NCBI GenBank assembly: GCA_000004695.1
Contig: CM000155.2
Location: forward strand, 1,632,001-1,696,000
DNA length: 64,000 bases
Origin: Dictyostelium discoideum
Lineage: Eukaryota
Reading direction: 5' to 3'
Made by a program: the position numbers and the translations under genes. Each line of letters starts with the position of its first letter. The first letter of the stretch is position 1. Shown here piece by piece: positions 36,118 through 42,865 of this stretch. The notes under the pieces are model-generated. The model was given only the letters and a program-made list of their open reading frames with translations, did no database searches and was not told the origin of the DNA.

Positions 36118-38506
36118 TTAATTTAAATATTTTTTTAACCATAATGAAATATTAACCCATTGATCTAAACGAGCATCAATTGAATCAAGACTATGACCAG
36201 TTTTTGGATACATTAAACATTTTGTTGGTACATCTCTTTCTCTTAACATACGATAATATAATAAACCTTGAGAAGGTGGAACACGAAGATCTGAATCACC
36301 TAAAGCTAATAATGATGGAATTTTGATGTTTTCAATATGGAAACTTGGTGAACATTTTCTCATTTTTTCAATTTCTTCCATTGATGGTAATGTATGATAT
36401 TGAGAGGTTGGATCAGAGAGATTAATACCAGCTTCAAAGAAACACCAATCTGGAATATCGGATAAGGTTGACATTGATGGAATATCGATTACAGGATTTC
36501 TCATGATTGAAGTTTTGACAATTGGGAATCTACTTAGATGTGCTGATAAGAAACCACCATGACTACCACCAATAACACCAATTTTATTTCTATCGATTGT
36601 ATTATCGATTTTATCGAGTGTGTAATTAATTGCTTGAACACAATCGTCAACATCCAAATCACCAATATAACCTGGTAAACAATCTACGAAATCTTTACCA
36701 TAACCTGTTGAACCTCTATAATTTGGAATTATAATATTATAACCCAATGAGAGTAAATAAGTGATTGTTGAAACATAACCAACATCTAAATTTGAATGTG
36801 GACCACCATGAATGAAAACTAAACAACCCAATGGTGAAGATTGTGTACTATTTTTATTCTTTAAGTAAATCAATTCAAATGATTTAATTGACTCTGTGTA
36901 TGGTTGTGGTGTTGGTTTTGATACTGGTACATTATGAATGGTTGCATTAAATGATTTGAAAATTGAATTACATTGTTCACTTGGTTTTGGTGAGTAAATT
37001 AATTGTTTCTCTTTATCACTACCCAAATAATCAACTAAATAAACTTTAGTTGGTTGATTTACTGATGATTCACCAATTAAATATTTCTTTGATTTAAAAT
37101 CAATATCATATAAAACATAAAGTTTTGGTTCTTCGTCACCACCATCAGTTGATGATGGAATTTTAATAATTTTCAATTCCTTTGATTCATAATTAAAAGA
37201 AACAATCATTTCAGTTGATCTAATAATTGTTGAAAATAAAAATGTTTTTTCATCAATAAATGGTCTCTCTGGTAATGATTGACAGAAAACACCTGGGAAT
37301 GAATCATTAAAATTCTTATAATCCAACAATGTTTCAAATGATTGTGGTGGTTGTTGTTGTTGAGTGATATTGTTTGAAGACCAATTTAAAGAGAAAATCT
37401 TTGAACAAGTATCATGAGCATAAATTCTTTCGTTAAAACCCAAGAAAATTAATTTTGAAGAATCTGGTGTAAAACGTGGTGATCTATAACAACCATTATT
37501 ACCATTTGGAATTAAATTTACAATTTGCAATGGTGTTGTTAATTTGGTTTGTTTTGGATCCAATTTTTGGTTCTCTTTCCATTGATTTCTAGCATTAATA
37601 AACTCTTTGAAATTTAAATGATACAATGAACTTGATCTATTGAAACATGCTCTAATACCAAGTTTTCTTTTACCAAAATTCCAACCAACATAAACTAATC
37701 CCTCACCATTTGGTGTCCAAATGACTTGACCTGCTGATATCTTTTCAGATGGGAATGGTTCAACTGGGAATACAACCTCCTTTTCAATATCTAATATAAA
37801 TATTGATGGATTTGCAACTGGTGAATAAGTTTCACCCCAATCATCTCTAAATACAAATTGATCACCAATAGCTTTATCTTTTGGTTCCTTATCAAAAAAT
37901 CCTGTTACATTTAATTTTGAATCTGCAATAAATGCTACATATTTCTCACATGGTGACCATGAAAAACTACCAAACCATTCTTTTTTTTTTTTAAAAAAAA
38001 AAAAAATAAATAAAATTAATAAAAATTCCATTATTATTATTATTATTATTATTAAATTTTATTAATTACAAACCATCATTTAAAATTTTTTTATGAATAT
38101 CTTTTGAAGTAATTGAAGTAATTAAATGTGAACCATCAGTAATATCAAAAGAGAATTCGAATTCAGTTGAAGGGTTCTCTTTAATTGTTAAAACTTTCTT
38201 ATGTGATGGTGATACTGATATGATTGAAGTTGCTAATTCTTGTTGAATTGCTGATGAAATTACTTGGTTTTTCTTTGATGATGATGATGAATCTTTTAAA
38301 ATTGTTTTTTGTGACATATAAAATTTAGTTTTCTTATTGGTGATATCAATTTGAGATACAATGATTGATGCTGATGTTTGATTTTCATTACTTTCATCAT
38401 TGTTTGTAAAAAATGCGTTGTTGACTGTTGGAATTGATAATAACTCCCTGTAAACTTTAGTTGTATCTTCTCTATACTTTATTTCTTGTTCACTTAAACT
38501 TTCCAT
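36118..38506 (-). CDS. Acylamino-acid-releasing enzyme (acylaminoacyl-peptidase APEH, S9 family), 2 exons, about 764 aa
   Basis: Exon 1 38074..38506 (MESLSEQEIKYREDTTKVYRELLSIPTV...KILND), GTTTGT donor, phase 1. Exon 2 36118..37979, acceptor aaaaaag, (E)WFGSFSWSPCEKYVAFIADSK... with a beta-propeller region. The catalytic domain has HGGPH, GGSHGGFL (nucleophile Ser), and a C-terminal Asp/His region. Confidence 0.65.
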
Positions 38507-39354
38507 CTTTTATGTCTCTTTTTGAAAAAAAATTAAAAAAATAAAAAAAATTAAAAAAATTAAAAAATTAATTTAAACCACCACTTATTAAAAAAAAAAA
38601 ATAAAAAAAATAAAAAATTAAAAAAAAATAAAAATAAATTAAATTGCGAACTTAAAAAAAAAAATTCTCACACAAACTACCTTTCATAATTTTTTTTTTT
38701 TTTTTTTTTTTTTGTCAATAAATTAATCAATTAAAGATCTTTGATTTAACTCATATTTTTTTTTTAAAAAAAATAATAAAAAATAAAATTTAATAATTGT
38801 TTTAAAGGGAATGAAAAACAAATTAAAAAAATTTTTTTTTTTTTTATAAAAAAAAGTGTAAAATCTGAATATTTTTTGTTTAATATCAATAAAAAAAGTA
38901 AAAAAAAAAAAAAATGATTTTCCAAAAAAAATTAGAAAAAAGAAATTTATTAAATGTTAGGGTTAGTTATTTTTTTTCCCCCTCCCGAAAAATTTTAATA
39001 TTTTTAATAATAAAAAAAAAAAAATATGGGTTTTTTTTTCCCGTCCATTATCATATTTGCATCATTTTTTTTTTTTTTTATTTTTTATTTAATTTTTAAT
39101 TTATTTTTTGAGTCAATCCTGAAAAAAAAACCAAAAAAAAAAAAACCAAAAAAAGAAATTAAAAAAAAAAAAAAAAAAAAAAAAACAGTGTTTATATTCT
39201 TTTGATGGTAACCGAAAGAAATCAAAATAACATATAGTTGAAACATAAACTCTTACAATTCTTTAAAAATAATAATAACCCCAAAAAAAATAAAAAAAAT
39301 TAAAAAAATTAAAAAAAAAATAAAAAAAAAAAAAAAAAATAAAAAAATAAAAAA

Positions 39355-41121
39355 ATGATCAGAAACTTAATCAAAACAAAAACAAAAATAAATGAAATTA
39401 AATTTAATAGGAATTTTTTATCAAGTTCAATATTAAAAATAAGAAATCATAATGATGATAGTAATAATATATTATTTTCAAATTCAAATACCATTGAAAT
39501 TCAAAATCTCCCATTAAATATAACAACAACTGATCTATTGAATCAATTTAAAAATTATAAAATATCACCACATGGAATTAAAACAAAATATAATACAGAT
39601 AAAGGATTTGCTTATATTACCTTTGAAAATAATCAAGATTTTATGAAAGCAATAGACAAGAAATTAATTTCATTCAATAATTTAAATTATTCAATTGAAC
39701 CAATTAAACAATCATTATCATCCTTATTATTATCATCATCATCAAATGAAGAAGAAGAAGTAACAACAACAACTAGTGAAACTATAAATACAAAAGTTGT
39801 TCAACACGAAAATGTAAATATAATATCATCATTAAATTCAAATCATTATAATCATTCAATATCGTATCCAAATCAGTCAGCTATTACTCAACAATTATGG
39901 TTTGCAAGAGTTAGTAAAGAAGTTAATCCAGCAATAACTGAAGCACCAAAGTTAACAACAAAAACACCAGAAGAGAGTAAAGTTGAGGTGATTTTACCAT
40001 TTAGTAGTGATTTACAATTACGTGAAAATTATTTATCCCCATATGGTAATTTAAGAATCGGTAGATTCTTGGAAGATTTAGATGCAATTGCTACAGCTGT
40101 AGCTTTTAAACATGGTGAGAATGAGAATGACGGTTATAAGAAAATGTTTGTAACTGTATCAGTTGATACAATTAAAATTCTTAGACCCTTAATTCCAGAT
40201 AGGGATATTAAAATGGAGGCTAAATTATCATGGGTTGGTAATAGTTCAATGGAGATCATGATTAGAGTTTTCTCAAAAGATAATGACAAAACTCAACAAT
40301 GGGATCCTGTCCTAGTCGCATTCTTTACAATGGTTGGTGTAGATCCAAAAACAATGAAACCAACACTTATCAACTCATTAAAAGTTGAAACTCCAACAGA
40401 GAGGAGACTATTCGCTGAAGGTGAACAACATAAATTACAACGTTTAAATTCAAATCAGCAATCACTTGAAAAATTACCACCAACTCCAACTGAATTACAA
40501 ACTATTCATAATCTATTCATGATTTCAAAACAACAACACCAATCATCAGATGTTGTTGATAGAAATTTCATTCCAATGAATTCAACAAGTTTAGAAACTG
40601 TTATTTTATGTCAACCTCAAGAAAAGAATATTAACGGTCAAATTTTTGGTGGTTATTTAATGAGAATGGCATTTGAAACTGCTTATACAACTTGTTTTAT
40701 GAAGTTTCCAGAATCATTACCAAGATTTAGAAGTATTAGTGGTTTGAAATTCCTTAAACCTGTTGAAATTGGTGATATTCTTAATATGGAATCAACCATT
40801 ACCTACTCAAAGCCAATGAACTCTGAAGATGATTGTGAAAATCAAACTTATTATACTCAAGTAGAAGTTTTAGCCTATGTCACCGACCCTTCCATTGGTG
40901 AAAAAAAACTTTCAAATGTTTTTAATTTCACTTTTTATTGTGCTCCTTCAAAATCTCAAAAAGAAAAATTACAACAACAAAATACAAACAAAAAATTAAA
41001 ACAAATTTTACCTCAAACTTATTCCGAAGCAATGCGTTATTTAACTGGAAAAAGAATTATTGATAGTTATATAGAATTTGATCAATCACCTTCTAAAATG
41101 GATATTTTTAAAAATGAATAA
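39355..41121 (+). CDS. Acyl-CoA thioesterase (ACOT9-like, tandem hotdog) with an N-terminal RRM-like domain
   Basis: 588-aa ORF. Residues about 40-120 carry RNP2-like IEIQNL and RNP1-like KGFAYITF with canonical spacing. Two hotdog-fold thioesterase halves follow (LPFSSDLQLRENYLSPYGNLRIGRFLEDLD..., ...GQIFGGYLMRMAFETAY...), collinear with mitochondrial ACOT9/10. Confidence 0.55.
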   Translation: MIRNLIKTKTKINEIKFNRNFLSSSILKIRNHNDDSNNILFSNSNTIEIQNLPLNITTTDLLNQFKNYKISPHGIKTKYNTDKGFAYITFENNQDFMKAIDKKLISFNNLNYSIEPIKQSLSSLLLSSSSNEEEEVTTTTSETINTKVVQHENVNIISSLNSNHYNHSISYPNQSAITQQLWFARVSKEVNPAITEAPKLTTKTPEESKVEVILPFSSDLQLRENYLSPYGNLRIGRFLEDLDAIATAVAFKHGENENDGYKKMFVTVSVDTIKILRPLIPDRDIKMEAKLSWVGNSSMEIMIRVFSKDNDKTQQWDPVLVAFFTMVGVDPKTMKPTLINSLKVETPTERRLFAEGEQHKLQRLNSNQQSLEKLPPTPTELQTIHNLFMISKQQHQSSDVVDRNFIPMNSTSLETVILCQPQEKNINGQIFGGYLMRMAFETAYTTCFMKFPESLPRFRSISGLKFLKPVEIGDILNMESTITYSKPMNSEDDCENQTYYTQVEVLAYVTDPSIGEKKLSNVFNFTFYCAPSKSQKEKLQQQNTNKKLKQILPQTYSEAMRYLTGKRIIDSYIEFDQSPSKMDIFKNE

Positions 41122-41521
41122 AAAAAAAAAAATACAAATAAAAAAAAAACATTCAAATAAATTAAATTTATTATTATTATTATGTTAGATTAAAAAATTA
41201 AAAAAAAAAATAATTAATTATTTGTGTTACTGTTAAACATTTTGAAAATGAATTTGATGTTAATAATAAAACACATTTTGTAACTGGATGTGTTAGTAAA
41301 ATTAAATAAAGAATTGATTCAGAATAATTTTGAGGTATAATTCTTTTTATTTTTTTTTTTTTAATAATTTTTTTTTTTTTCTATTATTTTTTTTTATTAT
41401 TTTTTTTTTTACAAAACATTTTATGTTATATATATATATTACTATTAAAAAGAAAGAATCTGGAAAAAAAAAAAAATATACCAATTTTTTTTCTTTCTTT
41501 TGTTTTTTTTTTTTTTTTTTT

Positions 41522-42865
41522 TTATTTCCATAATTTGTTGATTGACATATTTTGTTCTGAATCCTTCTTCATAACTTTAGAAACTGCCATTTCAAAATCT
41601 TCTTGAGATACATGAACTCTTCTTTCACGAAGAGCATACATACCAGCTTCAGTACAAACTGCTTTTAATTCTGCACCTGAAGCACCATTCATTTTATCTG
41701 AAATCTTTTTAAGGTTAATTCCTCTTGTTAAATTCATTTTTCTTGAATGGATCTTTAAAATATCTAAACGACCCTATTTGTTTTTGAAAAAAAAAAAATA
41801 TAAAAAAAGGAATAATAAAGAAATAATAAAGAAATAATAAAAGTTAATTTAAATTATTTTTTTTTTTTGTTTTTTTTTTTTATGAAAAAAAAAAAAAATA
41901 CATACAGCATCACCTGGATTTGGAAATTCAATTTTTCTATCAATTCTACCTGGTCTTAATAAAGCTGGATCTAAAATATCAATACGATTTGTACACATGA
42001 GTACTTTAATGTTTTTAGTACTTTCAAAACCATCCAATTGATTGAGTAACTCTAACATAGTACGTTGAACTTCACTATCACCACCACCGGAACCAGATTC
42101 ACCACGAGATGAACCAATGGAATCGATTTCATCCATGAAAATGATTGAAGGAGCATGTTCTCTAGCCATAATGAATAATTCACGAACCATACGACTACCT
42201 TCACCAATATATTTTTGAACCAATTCGGAACCACTAACTCTAATGAATGTGCAATCGGTATGATGAGCAACGGCACGAGCTAACAAAGTTTTACCAGTAC
42301 CTGGTGGACCATACAAGAGTACACCCTTTGGTTGAGCGATACCTAAACTTTCAAATAACTCTGGATGTTTAATTGGCAACTCAATGACTTCTTTGATCTC
42401 TTTGATTTGTTTATCCAATCCACCAACCATATCATAGGTTGAATCTGGTATCTTTTCAACTTTCATCAAACTGACCAACGGATCAATTTTATTTGGTAAG
42501 ATTCTATGGAGTGTGTAACTTTCATGTTTCAATGCAGCTCTGGTTGATGGTGTTAACTTGGCAATATCAACGGTTGGATCAATATCAACCACGAATTTAC
42601 CCTCTGGATTAACCTTTACCAATACTTTATTCTTTCCCATTAATTTGACTACCTCTGCTACATGTGATCCTGGGTTAGTCAATAATTGTAATTCCTCTTT
42701 TAACATTCTTACACGATTATTTAATTCATTTCTTTGTGCTTCTAATCTTCTTAAATCTTGTGCTTTTTCATTAACTTTAATTTCTAATTCTTCAATCTTT
42801 GAACAATAATATGATTTAATACCTTTTGTTTCATCTTTATTTTGTTGATTATTTTGTGCAACCAT
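41522..42865 (-). CDS. psmC5: 26S proteasome regulatory subunit 8 (Rpt6/PSMC5, Sug1), 2 exons, 403 aa
   Basis: Near-identity to human PSMC5 over the entire length: KIEELE...[17 protein letters not shown]..., Walker [47 protein letters not shown], Walker [12 protein letters not shown]. Exon 1 41906..42865 ends ...IEFPNPGDA with a GTATGT donor. Exon 2 41522..41773, acceptor caaatag, [24 protein letters not shown]...MSINKLWK. Confidence 0.9.

Follow-up and report, generated by a model that had tools for sequence, protein, structure and literature searches.

Does a single protein of Dictyostelium discoideum join an RNA-recognition motif (RRM) to an ACOT9-type acyl-CoA thioesterase, and, if so, what might the RRM do there? 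The question is raised by DDB_G0292458, a gene in the window analyzed here (the whole stretch of 64,000 nucleotides, positions 1,632,001-1,696,000 of contig CM000155.2), where it occupies positions 39355-41121 of the plus strand as a complete, intron-less coding sequence of 588 codons plus stop. The translation of this interval is identical in sequence to XP_629631.1/Q54D65 from D. discoideum AX4, and the frame opens with an ATG preceded by an in-frame stop four codons upstream; the single uninterrupted 588-residue ORF that had been described from the DNA is hence confirmed, introns being absent. Four parts follow one another in this one uninterrupted frame, namely a presequence, an RRM, a linker, and a tandem-hotdog core.

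The RRM (residues 45-118; 39487-39708, plus strand) is supported by Pfam, AF2, and Foldseek. Pfam RRM_1 (PF00076) scores 22.8 bits against the whole protein and 26.2-27.7 bits against the isolated segment, above the curated cut-off of 20.7, and matches 13 of 13 orthologous dictyostelid domains with a best E value of 1.6e-9. When a profile of this protein family's domain was compared with the PDB, only RRM proteins were retrieved (e.g., nucleolin at 2.8e-12 and hnRNP H at 1.8e-9). The AF2 model of the domain (pLDDT 87.2) has the order beta-alpha-beta-beta-alpha-beta, with b1 at residues 46-52, a1 at 58-64, b2 at 70-79, b3 at 84-90, a2 at 93-102, and b4 at 110-116, the last being preceded by an extra short strand (104-107), and all 50 matches listed in a Foldseek search of this model against the PDB are RRMs (TM 0.65-0.79). 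The significant HMM match and the confidently predicted fold both bear out the RRM of the original prediction, and on the profile and model evidence we conclude that the domain is a true RRM_1 homolog with a predicted RRM fold. Neither a further RRM nor any other domain of RNA processing was detected in Q54D65.

Some other assignments were considered and set aside. The Pfam match to Glyco_transf_20 (21.5 bits) was dismissed as falling below its cut-off of 32.5, and so were the weak, below-threshold matches to DUF4283 and RRM_Thc1. As a separate observation, the best matches of the RRM in sequence and in fold include hnRNP H, GRSF1, and RBM12. UHM domains are protein-binding RRMs whose RNP motifs are degenerate and in which helix 2 is followed by an Arg-x-Phe motif; this subtype was not supported, because Arg-x-Phe is not conserved and RNP1 is not degenerate. 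A K-x-F (KAF, KSF, or KIF) occurs in some orthologs, and there is none in Q54D65 itself (KKLISF), in D. purpureum 151354, or in the Heterostelium and Acytostelium proteins. Quasi-RRMs (hnRNP F/H, GRSF1) have non-canonical RNP1 and RNP2 motifs and bind RNA through loops, with an aromatic residue after an RGLP motif; this subtype was likewise not supported, RNP1 being canonical and the corresponding NLP-L/S-N stretch being without the loop aromatic.

The original prediction also held that RNP2 and RNP1 are both present with canonical spacing. The spacing stands, as does RNP1, since the octamer KGFAYITF (residues 83-90; 39601-39624, plus strand) of the D. discoideum protein agrees with the consensus [KR]-G-[FY]-[GA]-[FY]-[ILV]-x-[FY] at every position. 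RNP2 does not: the hexamer IEIQNL (residues 47-52; 39493-39510, plus strand), read from the sequence, fits the consensus [ILV]-[FY]-[ILV]-x-N-L at five positions but has Glu (Glu48) at position 2, which is normally aromatic (Phe or Tyr). Position 2 of RNP2 is Glu in 13 of 13 dictyostelid domains, and Glu48 shares its invariance with Lys76. RNP2-4 is basic (Arg or Lys) in 11 of the 13, RNP1-5 (Tyr87) is Tyr in 11, and RNP1-3 (Phe85) is Phe in 11 and Cys in D. firmibasis and D. dimigraforme; Cys is also found at the Phe85 position in D. citrinum, that is, in three sister species in all. At RNP1-1, which varies across the family, a basic residue is confined to the A-type copies of the D. discoideum group, the net charge of the domain ranges from -4 to +4 across the dictyostelids (near neutral, not clearly basic), and 11 residues of the RRM are invariant across the homologs. 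Many accepted RRMs, such as those of PTB and hnRNP F/H, deviate at RNP2 position 2, and the Glu therefore weakens the label of a canonical RNA binder and not the RRM homology. Canonical RRM_1 domains (nucleolin RBD2, PABP, DAZAP1, eIF3g) and the non-canonical RRMs of hnRNP F/H, GRSF1, and RBM12 resemble that of Q54D65 in being both its sequence-profile and its fold matches; unlike them, the Q54D65 family has the invariant RNP2-2 Glu, the near-neutral charge, and the fusion to a metabolic enzyme. RNA binding by the RRM is thus plausible but unproven, because the surface, as judged from the aligned residues, is atypical in its invariant RNP2 Glu, its near-neutral charge, and the replacement of Phe85 by Cys.

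Downstream of the RRM, on the plus strand, the thioesterase core comprises a conserved N-terminal helix (SYPNQSAITQQLW) with hotdog domain 1 (residues 170-365; 39862-40449), a helical connector between the hotdogs (residues 366-410; 40450-40584; AF2 helices at 347-367 and 378-393), and hotdog domain 2 with a C-terminal helix (residues 411-588; 40585-41118). Pfam 4HBT matches two stretches at 44 bits, the best at residues 236-312, and YciA-type and 4HBT matches are found in hotdog 2 at residues 417-476. In a PDB sequence search, hydrolases align to residues 231-361 and 408-484 and include acyl-CoA hydrolases, ACOT7, and ACOT12, the latter two at only ~29-32 bits. With Foldseek, the core matches ACOT12 (4mob, E 1.3e-19) and ACOT7 (4zv3, E 2.5e-17) at target-normalized TM values of 0.78-0.86, and ACOT12 is the best structural match (0.81-0.86 for 3b7k and 4moc); no ACOT9 entry is among the matches in the PDB sequence and Foldseek searches. 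The best non-dictyostelid matches (250-480 bits, in a one-way search) are ACOT9-like or "HotDog ACOT-type" proteins, and the identity of Q54D65 to these relatives is 27-36% over 46-66% of the protein. The two hotdog halves noted earlier are upheld and their likeness to ACOT9-type enzymes is supported, in that the core is a tandem hotdog like those of ACOT12 and ACOT7 and the nearest named non-dictyostelid relatives include "acyl-coenzyme A thioesterase 9, mitochondrial-like".

In the alignment to 1vpm and 5hz4, Asp243 (codon 40081-40083) falls on the conserved Asp of an IDEIA motif and Asn425 (codon 40627-40629) on the Asn of a DTN motif. Asp243 thereby corresponds to the Asp of acyl-CoA hydrolases from S. 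aureus and B. halodurans, and the title of PDB entry 5egk names an Asp43Ala mutant of the former enzyme. The reciprocal pseudo-symmetric positions, according to an alignment read by hand, are Ser228 and Phe440. Both Asp243 and Asn425 are invariant in the homolog alignment; among the best 150 of 5,194 relatives, Asp243 is nearly invariant and the Asn425 column is one of only two invariant columns. These alignments indicate that a single putative Asp243/Asn425 catalytic-type pair is retained across the two hotdog halves, its catalytic role being one that we assume from what is known of ACOT7 and YciA-type enzymes.

The two remaining parts of the protein have low-confidence models. Residues 1-44 (39355-39486, plus strand) form a basic, low-complexity segment that by composition is presequence-like and a putative mitochondrial targeting peptide (AF2 pLDDT < 50 for residues 1-43). 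The first 35 residues contain 8 Lys/Arg versus 3 Asp/Glu, in keeping with the basic start noted originally; orthologs have 0-2 acidic residues there, mostly none, and the N-termini are basic and acid-poor in all homologs, including the RRM-less ones of other eukaryotes. Mouse Acot9, for which location in the matrix has been shown experimentally, carries a predicted targeting sequence (bioRxiv 10.1101/705327), and by analogy we infer that Q54D65 is probably imported into the mitochondrial matrix as well. It is unmentioned in the main texts of a Dictyostelium mitochondrial compendium (PMC9118663) and of a spatial-proteomics preprint (bioRxiv 10.64898/2026.09.28.755154). Residues 119-169 (39709-39861, plus strand) are a disordered Ser/Thr/Glu/Asn-rich linker (AF2 pLDDT < 50 for residues 119-174) that is expanded in the DDB_G0292458 paralog. 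RNP2 and the SYxN core motif are 124 residues apart in Q54D65 versus 83-90 in most other dictyostelid homologs, which implies a linker of ~52 residues in the former and ~11-18 in most of the latter; by sequence spacing, linkers as short as those of most orthologs would also suit packing of the RRM against the enzyme.

The fusion is present in every full-length homolog recovered from six dictyostelid genera, in two paralog groups and more than 20 proteins; the RRM-thioesterase architecture is carried by Dictyostelium spp., Polysphondylium, Tieghemostelium, Heterostelium, and Acytostelium. An exhaustive HMM scan returned 5,194 family members, and among the best 150, the RRM is covered only by two dictyostelid representatives, its presence being assessed with a local HMM built from an RRM-only alignment and with Pfam on the ten longest extensions. 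All 147 non-dictyostelid relatives examined in this way are without the RRM, and none was seen in the Protostelium, fungal, choanoflagellate, heterolobosean, and crab homologs examined. It should be noted that Protostelium is the only other amoebozoan among the relatives identified and that its sequence starts right at the core and is possibly 5'-incomplete; the comparison of amoebozoan orthologs thus finds the RRM in the five named dictyostelid genera and not in Protostelium. The suggestion of a lineage-specific domain fusion was right, because dictyostelids carry the N-terminal RRM and the other relatives examined do not, and at the level of sequence, the RRM-ACOT fusion is limited to dictyostelids among those relatives.

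The second D. discoideum copy, Q54LP9 (XP_637683.1, 632 residues), has the same layout of presequence, RRM, and tandem hotdog; a Q54LP9-related cluster representative from D. cf. discoideum is 47% identical to Q54D65. Unlike Q54D65, Q54LP9 has a longer pre-RRM region with a conserved acidic SFDDIxD motif, a short RRM-to-core linker, and, ahead of hotdog 1, an insertion rich in His, Gln, and Asn. D. firmibasis and D. dimigraforme in addition contain secondary tandem duplicates that have dropped the RRM, so that the thioesterase core can exist without it. In an NJ tree, these short copies group with the A-type clade at 100% bootstrap; no claim is made on whether the A/B duplication came before or after speciation, because the deep nodes have very low bootstrap values. 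A 27-codon relic (CVTVKHFENEFDVNNKTHFVTGCVSKI) of a lost RRM-less tandem paralog lies at 41223-41303 on the plus strand of the window (tblastn, 63% identity, E 2.8e-4). Its best reciprocal match falls within the short tandem copy in D. dimigraforme (L006 9084-9164, E 1e-7), that of D. firmibasis contains a match as well, and the relic holds a syntenic position, with the RRM-ACOT gene on one side and the proteasome ATPase gene on the other.

We propose that Q54D65 starts with a targeting peptide and an RRM, which a flexible linker joins to a tandem-hotdog acyl-CoA thioesterase of ACOT9 type. After import into the matrix, this enzyme would hydrolyze acyl-CoAs, releasing CoA and free fatty acid, and its one composite active site would lie where the two hotdogs meet. 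The RRM would then serve as a ligand-binding accessory domain through which the enzyme is positioned or regulated. On the beta-sheet face of the RRM, Lys76, Phe85, Tyr87, and the basic RNP2-4 may contact single-stranded RNA in the organelle, with the invariant Glu48 as a candidate specificity residue, and this contact could anchor the thioesterase on mitochondrial RNA or on ribonucleoprotein, or allow its activity to be modulated by RNA. From the residues on the sheet face, we hold such binding of organellar single-stranded RNA, with tethering or modulation of the thioesterase, to be a real possibility that falls somewhat short of probable. A more far-reaching version, in which a functional matrix RRM physically links mitochondrial transcripts or the mitoribosome to a thioesterase that senses acyl-CoA/CoA, seems unlikely to us; if true, it would mean that RNA regulates the enzyme (riboregulation) or that local acyl-CoA hydrolysis affects mitochondrial gene expression, and it would constitute a natural, hard-wired link between RNA, enzyme, and metabolite in a genetically tractable organism.

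Two accounts would remove the RRM from consideration altogether. The RRM and the thioesterase could be encoded by different genes or transcripts whose frames coincide by chance, and the GC content of the first 400 nt of DDB_G0292458 (15-20%) is near intergenic values, as such an artefact of the gene model would have it. However, ~18.8 in-frame stops are expected in the first 600 nt of the ORF and none is present, this stretch stays open in 0 of 20,000 shuffles, and M1 and M97 are the only Met residues before hotdog 1, the next being M264, so that a thioesterase-only product would find no start between residues 97 and 264. The linker is open as well, and the identical architecture recurs in the more than 20 homologs. 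Logan contigs (assemblies of sequencing runs) of 1.8-2.0 kb contain the whole ORF and little else, two of them spanning window positions 39330-41148 almost exactly; they may be transcripts or the product of assembly breaks, and they are weak transcript evidence because they end in poly-A tracts, where DNA assembly also breaks. Taken with the homologs, these data make an artefact of this kind exceedingly improbable. The RRM could also be a functionless, neutral leftover of old exon shuffling in what is simply a mitochondrial thioesterase, as the RRM-less tandem duplicates of D. firmibasis and D. dimigraforme, in which the core is encoded alone, would allow. Selection argues otherwise: in the DDB_G0292458 paralog, dN/dS is 0.10-0.25 for the RRM versus 0.33-1.17 for the presequence and 0.32-1.51 for the linker, both roughly neutral, and the RRM of this paralog is under purifying selection. 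It is moreover kept in both paralog groups and six genera with its 11 invariant residues, and in D. discoideum it is the RRM-less copy that has decayed, leaving the relic at 41223-41303. We consider a neutral leftover very unlikely.

A closer competitor, raised already in the original prediction as a degenerate RRM serving protein interaction, is a pseudo-RRM that does not now bind RNA and serves as a protein-interaction or intramolecular regulatory domain, for instance by docking on the hotdog core or a neighboring subunit of the oligomer and gating substrate or CoA, or by recruiting a partner in the matrix. The invariant Glu at RNP2-2, the non-basic net charge, and the variable RNP1-1 speak for it, as does the fact that Phe85 has become Cys in three sister species, yet the RRM is still under purifying selection. 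The short ancestral linker (~11-18 residues) places the RRM close to the enzyme core, a weak match to PARP14 RRM3 (17.7-22.3 bits, below its cut-off) was recorded, and there is a weak likeness to non-canonical RRMs of the hnRNP H/RBM12/GRSF1 type. RRMs turned to protein binding through their helical face usually lose the RNP aromatics; here, two of the three RNP aromatic positions and the invariant Lys are retained on the sheet face, the UHM-type Arg-x-Phe after helix 2 is not conserved, and in the DDB_G0292458 paralog itself, the linker is long and, according to AF2, disordered. We regard a pseudo-RRM as a serious candidate, only slightly less likely than contact of the sheet face with organellar RNA, which remains our preferred, if tentative, reading.

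In either case, Q54D65 is a genuine, lineage-specific variant of a known enzyme family, set apart by its accessory domain. Like Q54D65, mammalian ACOT9/ACOT10 (type II, matrix) have two 4HBT halves per chain and a basic presequence, and ACOT9-like relatives share the conserved Asp/Asn catalytic-type residues; unlike these relatives, the crab ACOT9-like proteins included, Q54D65 has an RRM of ~75 residues and a linker between presequence and core. ACOT11 (Them1/BFIT) and ACOT12 (CACH) are tandem-hotdog thioesterases with a C-terminal lipid-binding START domain and thus, like Q54D65, combine a double-hotdog thioesterase with one accessory ligand-binding domain, but in Q54D65 the accessory domain is N-terminal and an RRM, i.e., a nucleic-acid-binding fold. 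The RRM is accordingly a different kind of accessory module from START on type II acyl-CoA thioesterases: a textbook RRM joined to a probable mitochondrial CoA-recycling enzyme and kept by dictyostelids under purifying selection. RNA binding has been reported for many metabolic enzymes that have no recognizable RNA-binding domain. Should the RRM bind RNA, D. discoideum would offer a simple knockout and tagging system for the role of RNA binding in a metabolic enzyme; otherwise, the protein would be a clean case of an RRM turned into a regulatory or protein-binding module.

Literature searches on DDB_G0292458, Q54D65, and Q54LP9 returned no paper on the protein, a search for an RRM on ACOT9 or another hotdog thioesterase returned no paper describing one, and a search combining Dictyostelium, RRM, mitochondria, and thioesterase returned nothing relevant. 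A better label than the current "hypothetical protein" would be [quoted passage not shown]. The fusion is already visible in databases, where the UniRef name for Q54D65 is "RRM domain-containing protein" and that of its paralog Q54LP9 is "RNA-binding region RNP-1 domain-containing protein".

At window positions 39355-41121 (forward strand), DDB_G0292458 is a single 588-codon ORF from its ATG, uninterrupted as the original prediction had it, and its product is identical to a publicly deposited protein of D. discoideum AX4 (DDB_G0292458; XP_629631.1; UniProt Q54D65), which NCBI labels "hypothetical protein" and UniRef "RRM domain-containing protein"; the window is accordingly nuclear DNA of D. 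discoideum. We are highly confident that the gene encodes an ACOT9-type thioesterase in a single chain, probably mitochondrial, that has a constrained RRM between presequence and enzyme and a single composite site made up of Asp243 and Asn425. That the gene model is an artefact, with RRM and thioesterase not belonging to one real product, is very unlikely in view of both the conserved architecture described below and the frame statistics: the first 600 nt have a G+C content of 15-27%, for which ∼18.8 in-frame stops are expected and none is observed, and 0 of 20,000 shuffles were open. The ATG is preceded by a poly-A-rich leader with an in-frame stop four codons upstream. Because the only Met residues ahead of the first hotdog are M1 and M97, and the following one (M264) is already within it, a thioesterase-only product cannot start 3' of the RRM. 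Logan contigs from seven public sequencing runs (L001 and L002, corresponding to window 39330-41148 and 39330-41132) include the whole ORF together with 25 nt of 5' and 11-27 nt of 3' flank. At 99.2% identity and with small indels, they specify a strain variant of 589 aa; they may derive from transcripts, or else from genomic DNA whose assembly broke at poly-A tracts.

The N-terminal domain is a genuine RRM and falls in RRM_1. The two motifs noted in the original prediction are present, IEIQNL at residues 47-52 (RNP2) and KGFAYITF at residues 83-90 (RNP1), and the Pfam RRM_1 model, proposed there as a check, scores 22.8 bits against the whole protein and 26.2-27.7 bits against the isolated segment, above the curated cut-off of 20.7 bits. 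All 13 orthologous N-terminal domains match RRM_1 separately (best E 1.6e-9), and a PDB search with the 13-domain profile returns RRM proteins only, led by nucleolin (2.8e-12) and hnRNP H (1.8e-9) and followed by PABP, Prp24, DAZAP1, GRSF1, and others. Structure prediction likewise gives a confident RRM fold: the AlphaFold2 model from the domain alignment (mean pLDDT 87.2) has b1 at 46-52, a1 at 58-64, b2 at 70-79, b3 at 84-90, a2 at 93-102, a short strand at 104-107, and b4 at 110-116, and all 50 Foldseek matches listed against the PDB are RRMs (TM 0.65-0.79), among them eIF3g, the hnRNP H qRRMs, ePABP2, RBM12, DAZAP1, and GRSF1.

The predicted tandem-hotdog thioesterase is also recognizable, and the core belongs with the type II ACOTs. 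Pfam finds 4HBT twice in Q54D65, bacterial acyl-CoA hydrolases from a PDB sequence search align to residues 231-361 and also to 408-484, and the full-length AlphaFold2 model (pLDDT 69.7, with residues 1-43 and 119-174 disordered) matches ACOT12 (4mob, E 1.3e-19) and ACOT7 (4zv3, 2.5e-17) in Foldseek, with target-normalized TM values of 0.78-0.86. As read by hand from the alignments to bacterial acyl-CoA hydrolases, the family Asp is kept in hotdog 1 (Asp243, within LEDLDA), where Ser228 occupies the Asn position, and the Asn is kept in hotdog 2 (Asn425, within EKNING), where Phe440 occupies the Asp position, a layout that we take to be one good and one degenerate site, as in ACOT7. Asp243 and Asn425 are invariant in our homologue protein alignment (A1), and only two columns, that of Asn425 included, are invariant across the best 150 of 5,194 family representatives; the two residues would together form a single composite putative active site.

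Word-index homology searches found the architecture again in several dictyostelids, namely in D. discoideum strains, D. citrinum, D. firmibasis, D. dimigraforme, Tieghemostelium lacteum, Heterostelium album, and Acytostelium subglobosum, and in two genes each in D. purpureum and Polysphondylium violaceum; the second D. discoideum copy, Q54LP9, is already named "RNA-binding region RNP-1 domain-containing protein". When 1.84 billion cluster representatives were scanned exhaustively with HMMER (E ≤ 0.001), 5,194 family members were recovered, and among the best 150 of these only two dictyostelid representatives align from profile position 1, the remaining hits beginning at position 129 or later, past the RRM. 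A local RRM HMM is positive in 27/27 full-length dictyostelid proteins and finds no RRM in the other 147 representatives (best E 0.58); the ten relatives whose N-termini extend furthest also lack one. The closest RRM-less relatives among the best 150 of 5,194 are from Protostelium nocturnum (a possibly truncated sequence whose first residues already belong to the core), blastoclads, chytrids, Basidiobolus, Pharyngomonas, and a choanoflagellate. Since the RRM is found in dictyostelids and the closest relatives are without it, the sequences covered (the best 150 of 5,194 members, and a dictyostelid sample recovered without a group 1 member, Cavenderia) suggest that it was acquired either at the base of Dictyostelia or inside the group, in line with the suspected lineage-specific fusion. 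Other N-terminal partners may occur in the family. In a Sorochytrium milnesiophthora protein (KAL7750838.1, 1176 aa), FDF and YjeF_N, the architecture of an Edc3-like mRNA-decapping enhancer, lie N-terminal to an ACOT9-like core (residues 773-1159); the gene model may be a merged one, or the protein may be another link, in a fungus, between RNA metabolism and ACOT9-like thioesterases. A 519-aa relative (P0099) has three MsrA_helical repeats (E 6.4e-20) N-terminal to the core, which would be another lineage-specific addition.

Nei-Gojobori dN/dS values for the four orthologous genes of D. discoideum, D. citrinum, D. dimigraforme, and D. firmibasis are 0.05-0.09 for the thioesterase core, 0.10-0.25 for the RRM, 0.33-1.17 for the presequence, and 0.32-1.51 for the linker; the RRM is under constraint and the disordered flanks are not. 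These values make a vestigial RRM unlikely. As to what the domain does, we tentatively favor RNA binding by its sheet face, at a little short of an even chance, because the domain retains the RNP1 aromatics and basic residues near them, as RRMs converted to protein binding seldom do. Of the residues predicted to lie on the sheet face, Lys76 and Glu48 (RNP2-2) are invariant across 13 dictyostelid domains, 11 of which have Arg or Lys at RNP2-4; Phe85 and Tyr87 are each kept in 11 of the 13. Three features speak against generic RNA binding: RNP2-2 is acidic rather than aromatic, a basic RNP1-1 is found only in the A-type copies (the paralogue group of DDB_G0292458) of the D. discoideum group, and the net charge of the RRM ranges from -4 to +4 across the dictyostelid domains. 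The invariant Glu and the neutral charge, together with a short ancestral linker and a Phe-to-Cys change at position 85, speak for a pseudo-RRM serving as a protein-binding or intramolecular regulatory domain, a serious contender that we hold to be only slightly less likely than RNA binding.

Position 85 in RNP1 is the canonical RNA-stacking residue. The motif (window 39601-39624) reads KGCCYITF in D. firmibasis and KGCVYITF in D. dimigraforme and D. citrinum, and every other dictyostelid homologue has Phe there; the pattern reflects either a reversion in D. discoideum or a parallel change in its three sister species. The RRM-to-core linker is ∼52 residues long in DDB_G0292458, because of a low-complexity insertion, compared with ∼11-18 residues in most homologues. 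Directly before RRM b1, most dictyostelid homologues (B-type, i.e., the other dictyostelid group, and non-Dictyostelium sequences; A1 columns about 140-150) carry a conserved acidic motif, S-F-D-D-I-x-D-F-Q-N, in place of which the A-type copy in the window has ILFSNSN.

The presequence-like start that was predicted is borne out in composition, a basic, acid-poor N-terminal segment being common to all homologues, with or without RRM. Mouse Acot9 has a predicted targeting sequence, is located in the matrix by protease protection, and is a CoA-inhibited enzyme acting on short- to medium-chain acyl-CoAs (bioRxiv 10.1101/705327). From these N-termini and the matrix location of the mouse enzyme, we infer that the Dictyostelium protein would be mitochondrial. 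What sets it apart from characterized ACOTs is its accessory domain: ACOT11 and ACOT12 have a C-terminal START domain, and we know of no characterized ACOT described with an RRM. The RRM sighting is not new, since automatic annotation already records it; we found no literature report of an RRM-hotdog thioesterase fusion, and the architecture is in databases but unstudied in the literature.

In D. firmibasis (L005 8363-9796, 477 aa) and D. dimigraforme (L006 8625-10103, 464 aa), a second ACOT9-like gene without RRM lies directly downstream of the DDB_G0292458 orthologue. Because a neighbor-joining tree groups this short copy with the A-type clade that includes DDB_G0292458 (100% bootstrap), we conclude that it is a duplicate of an RRM-bearing gene that secondarily lost the RRM, and that D. 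discoideum and D. citrinum later lost this copy. Within the 400-nt spacer 3' of DDB_G0292458 is a 27-codon open fragment, CVTVKHFENEFDVNNKTHFVTGCVSKI (window 41223-41303, forward strand), that matches the first hotdog of the intact paralogues at the syntenic position (63% identity to D. dimigraforme ACTA71_003428, 54% to D. firmibasis RB653_003885) and looks like the last remnant of the deleted tandem duplicate; no such relic was detected in the D. citrinum locus.

On the reverse strand, two adjacent flanking ORFs, 36118-38031 and 38066-38506, have the look of the two exons of a gene for an acylaminoacyl-peptidase-like S9 serine peptidase, the syntenic genes in the three sister species carrying APEH_N and Peptidase_S9. 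A second reverse-strand pair, 41849-42865 and 41522-41737, has a short AT-rich gap between its ORFs and looks like a one-intron gene for a regulatory AAA-ATPase subunit of the 26S proteasome; its syntenic counterparts encode 403 aa and carry Prot_ATP_ID_OB_C, AAA, and AAA_lid_3. All three sister species keep the gene order SET, peptidase, RRM-ACOT, proteasome ATPase, RPL6.
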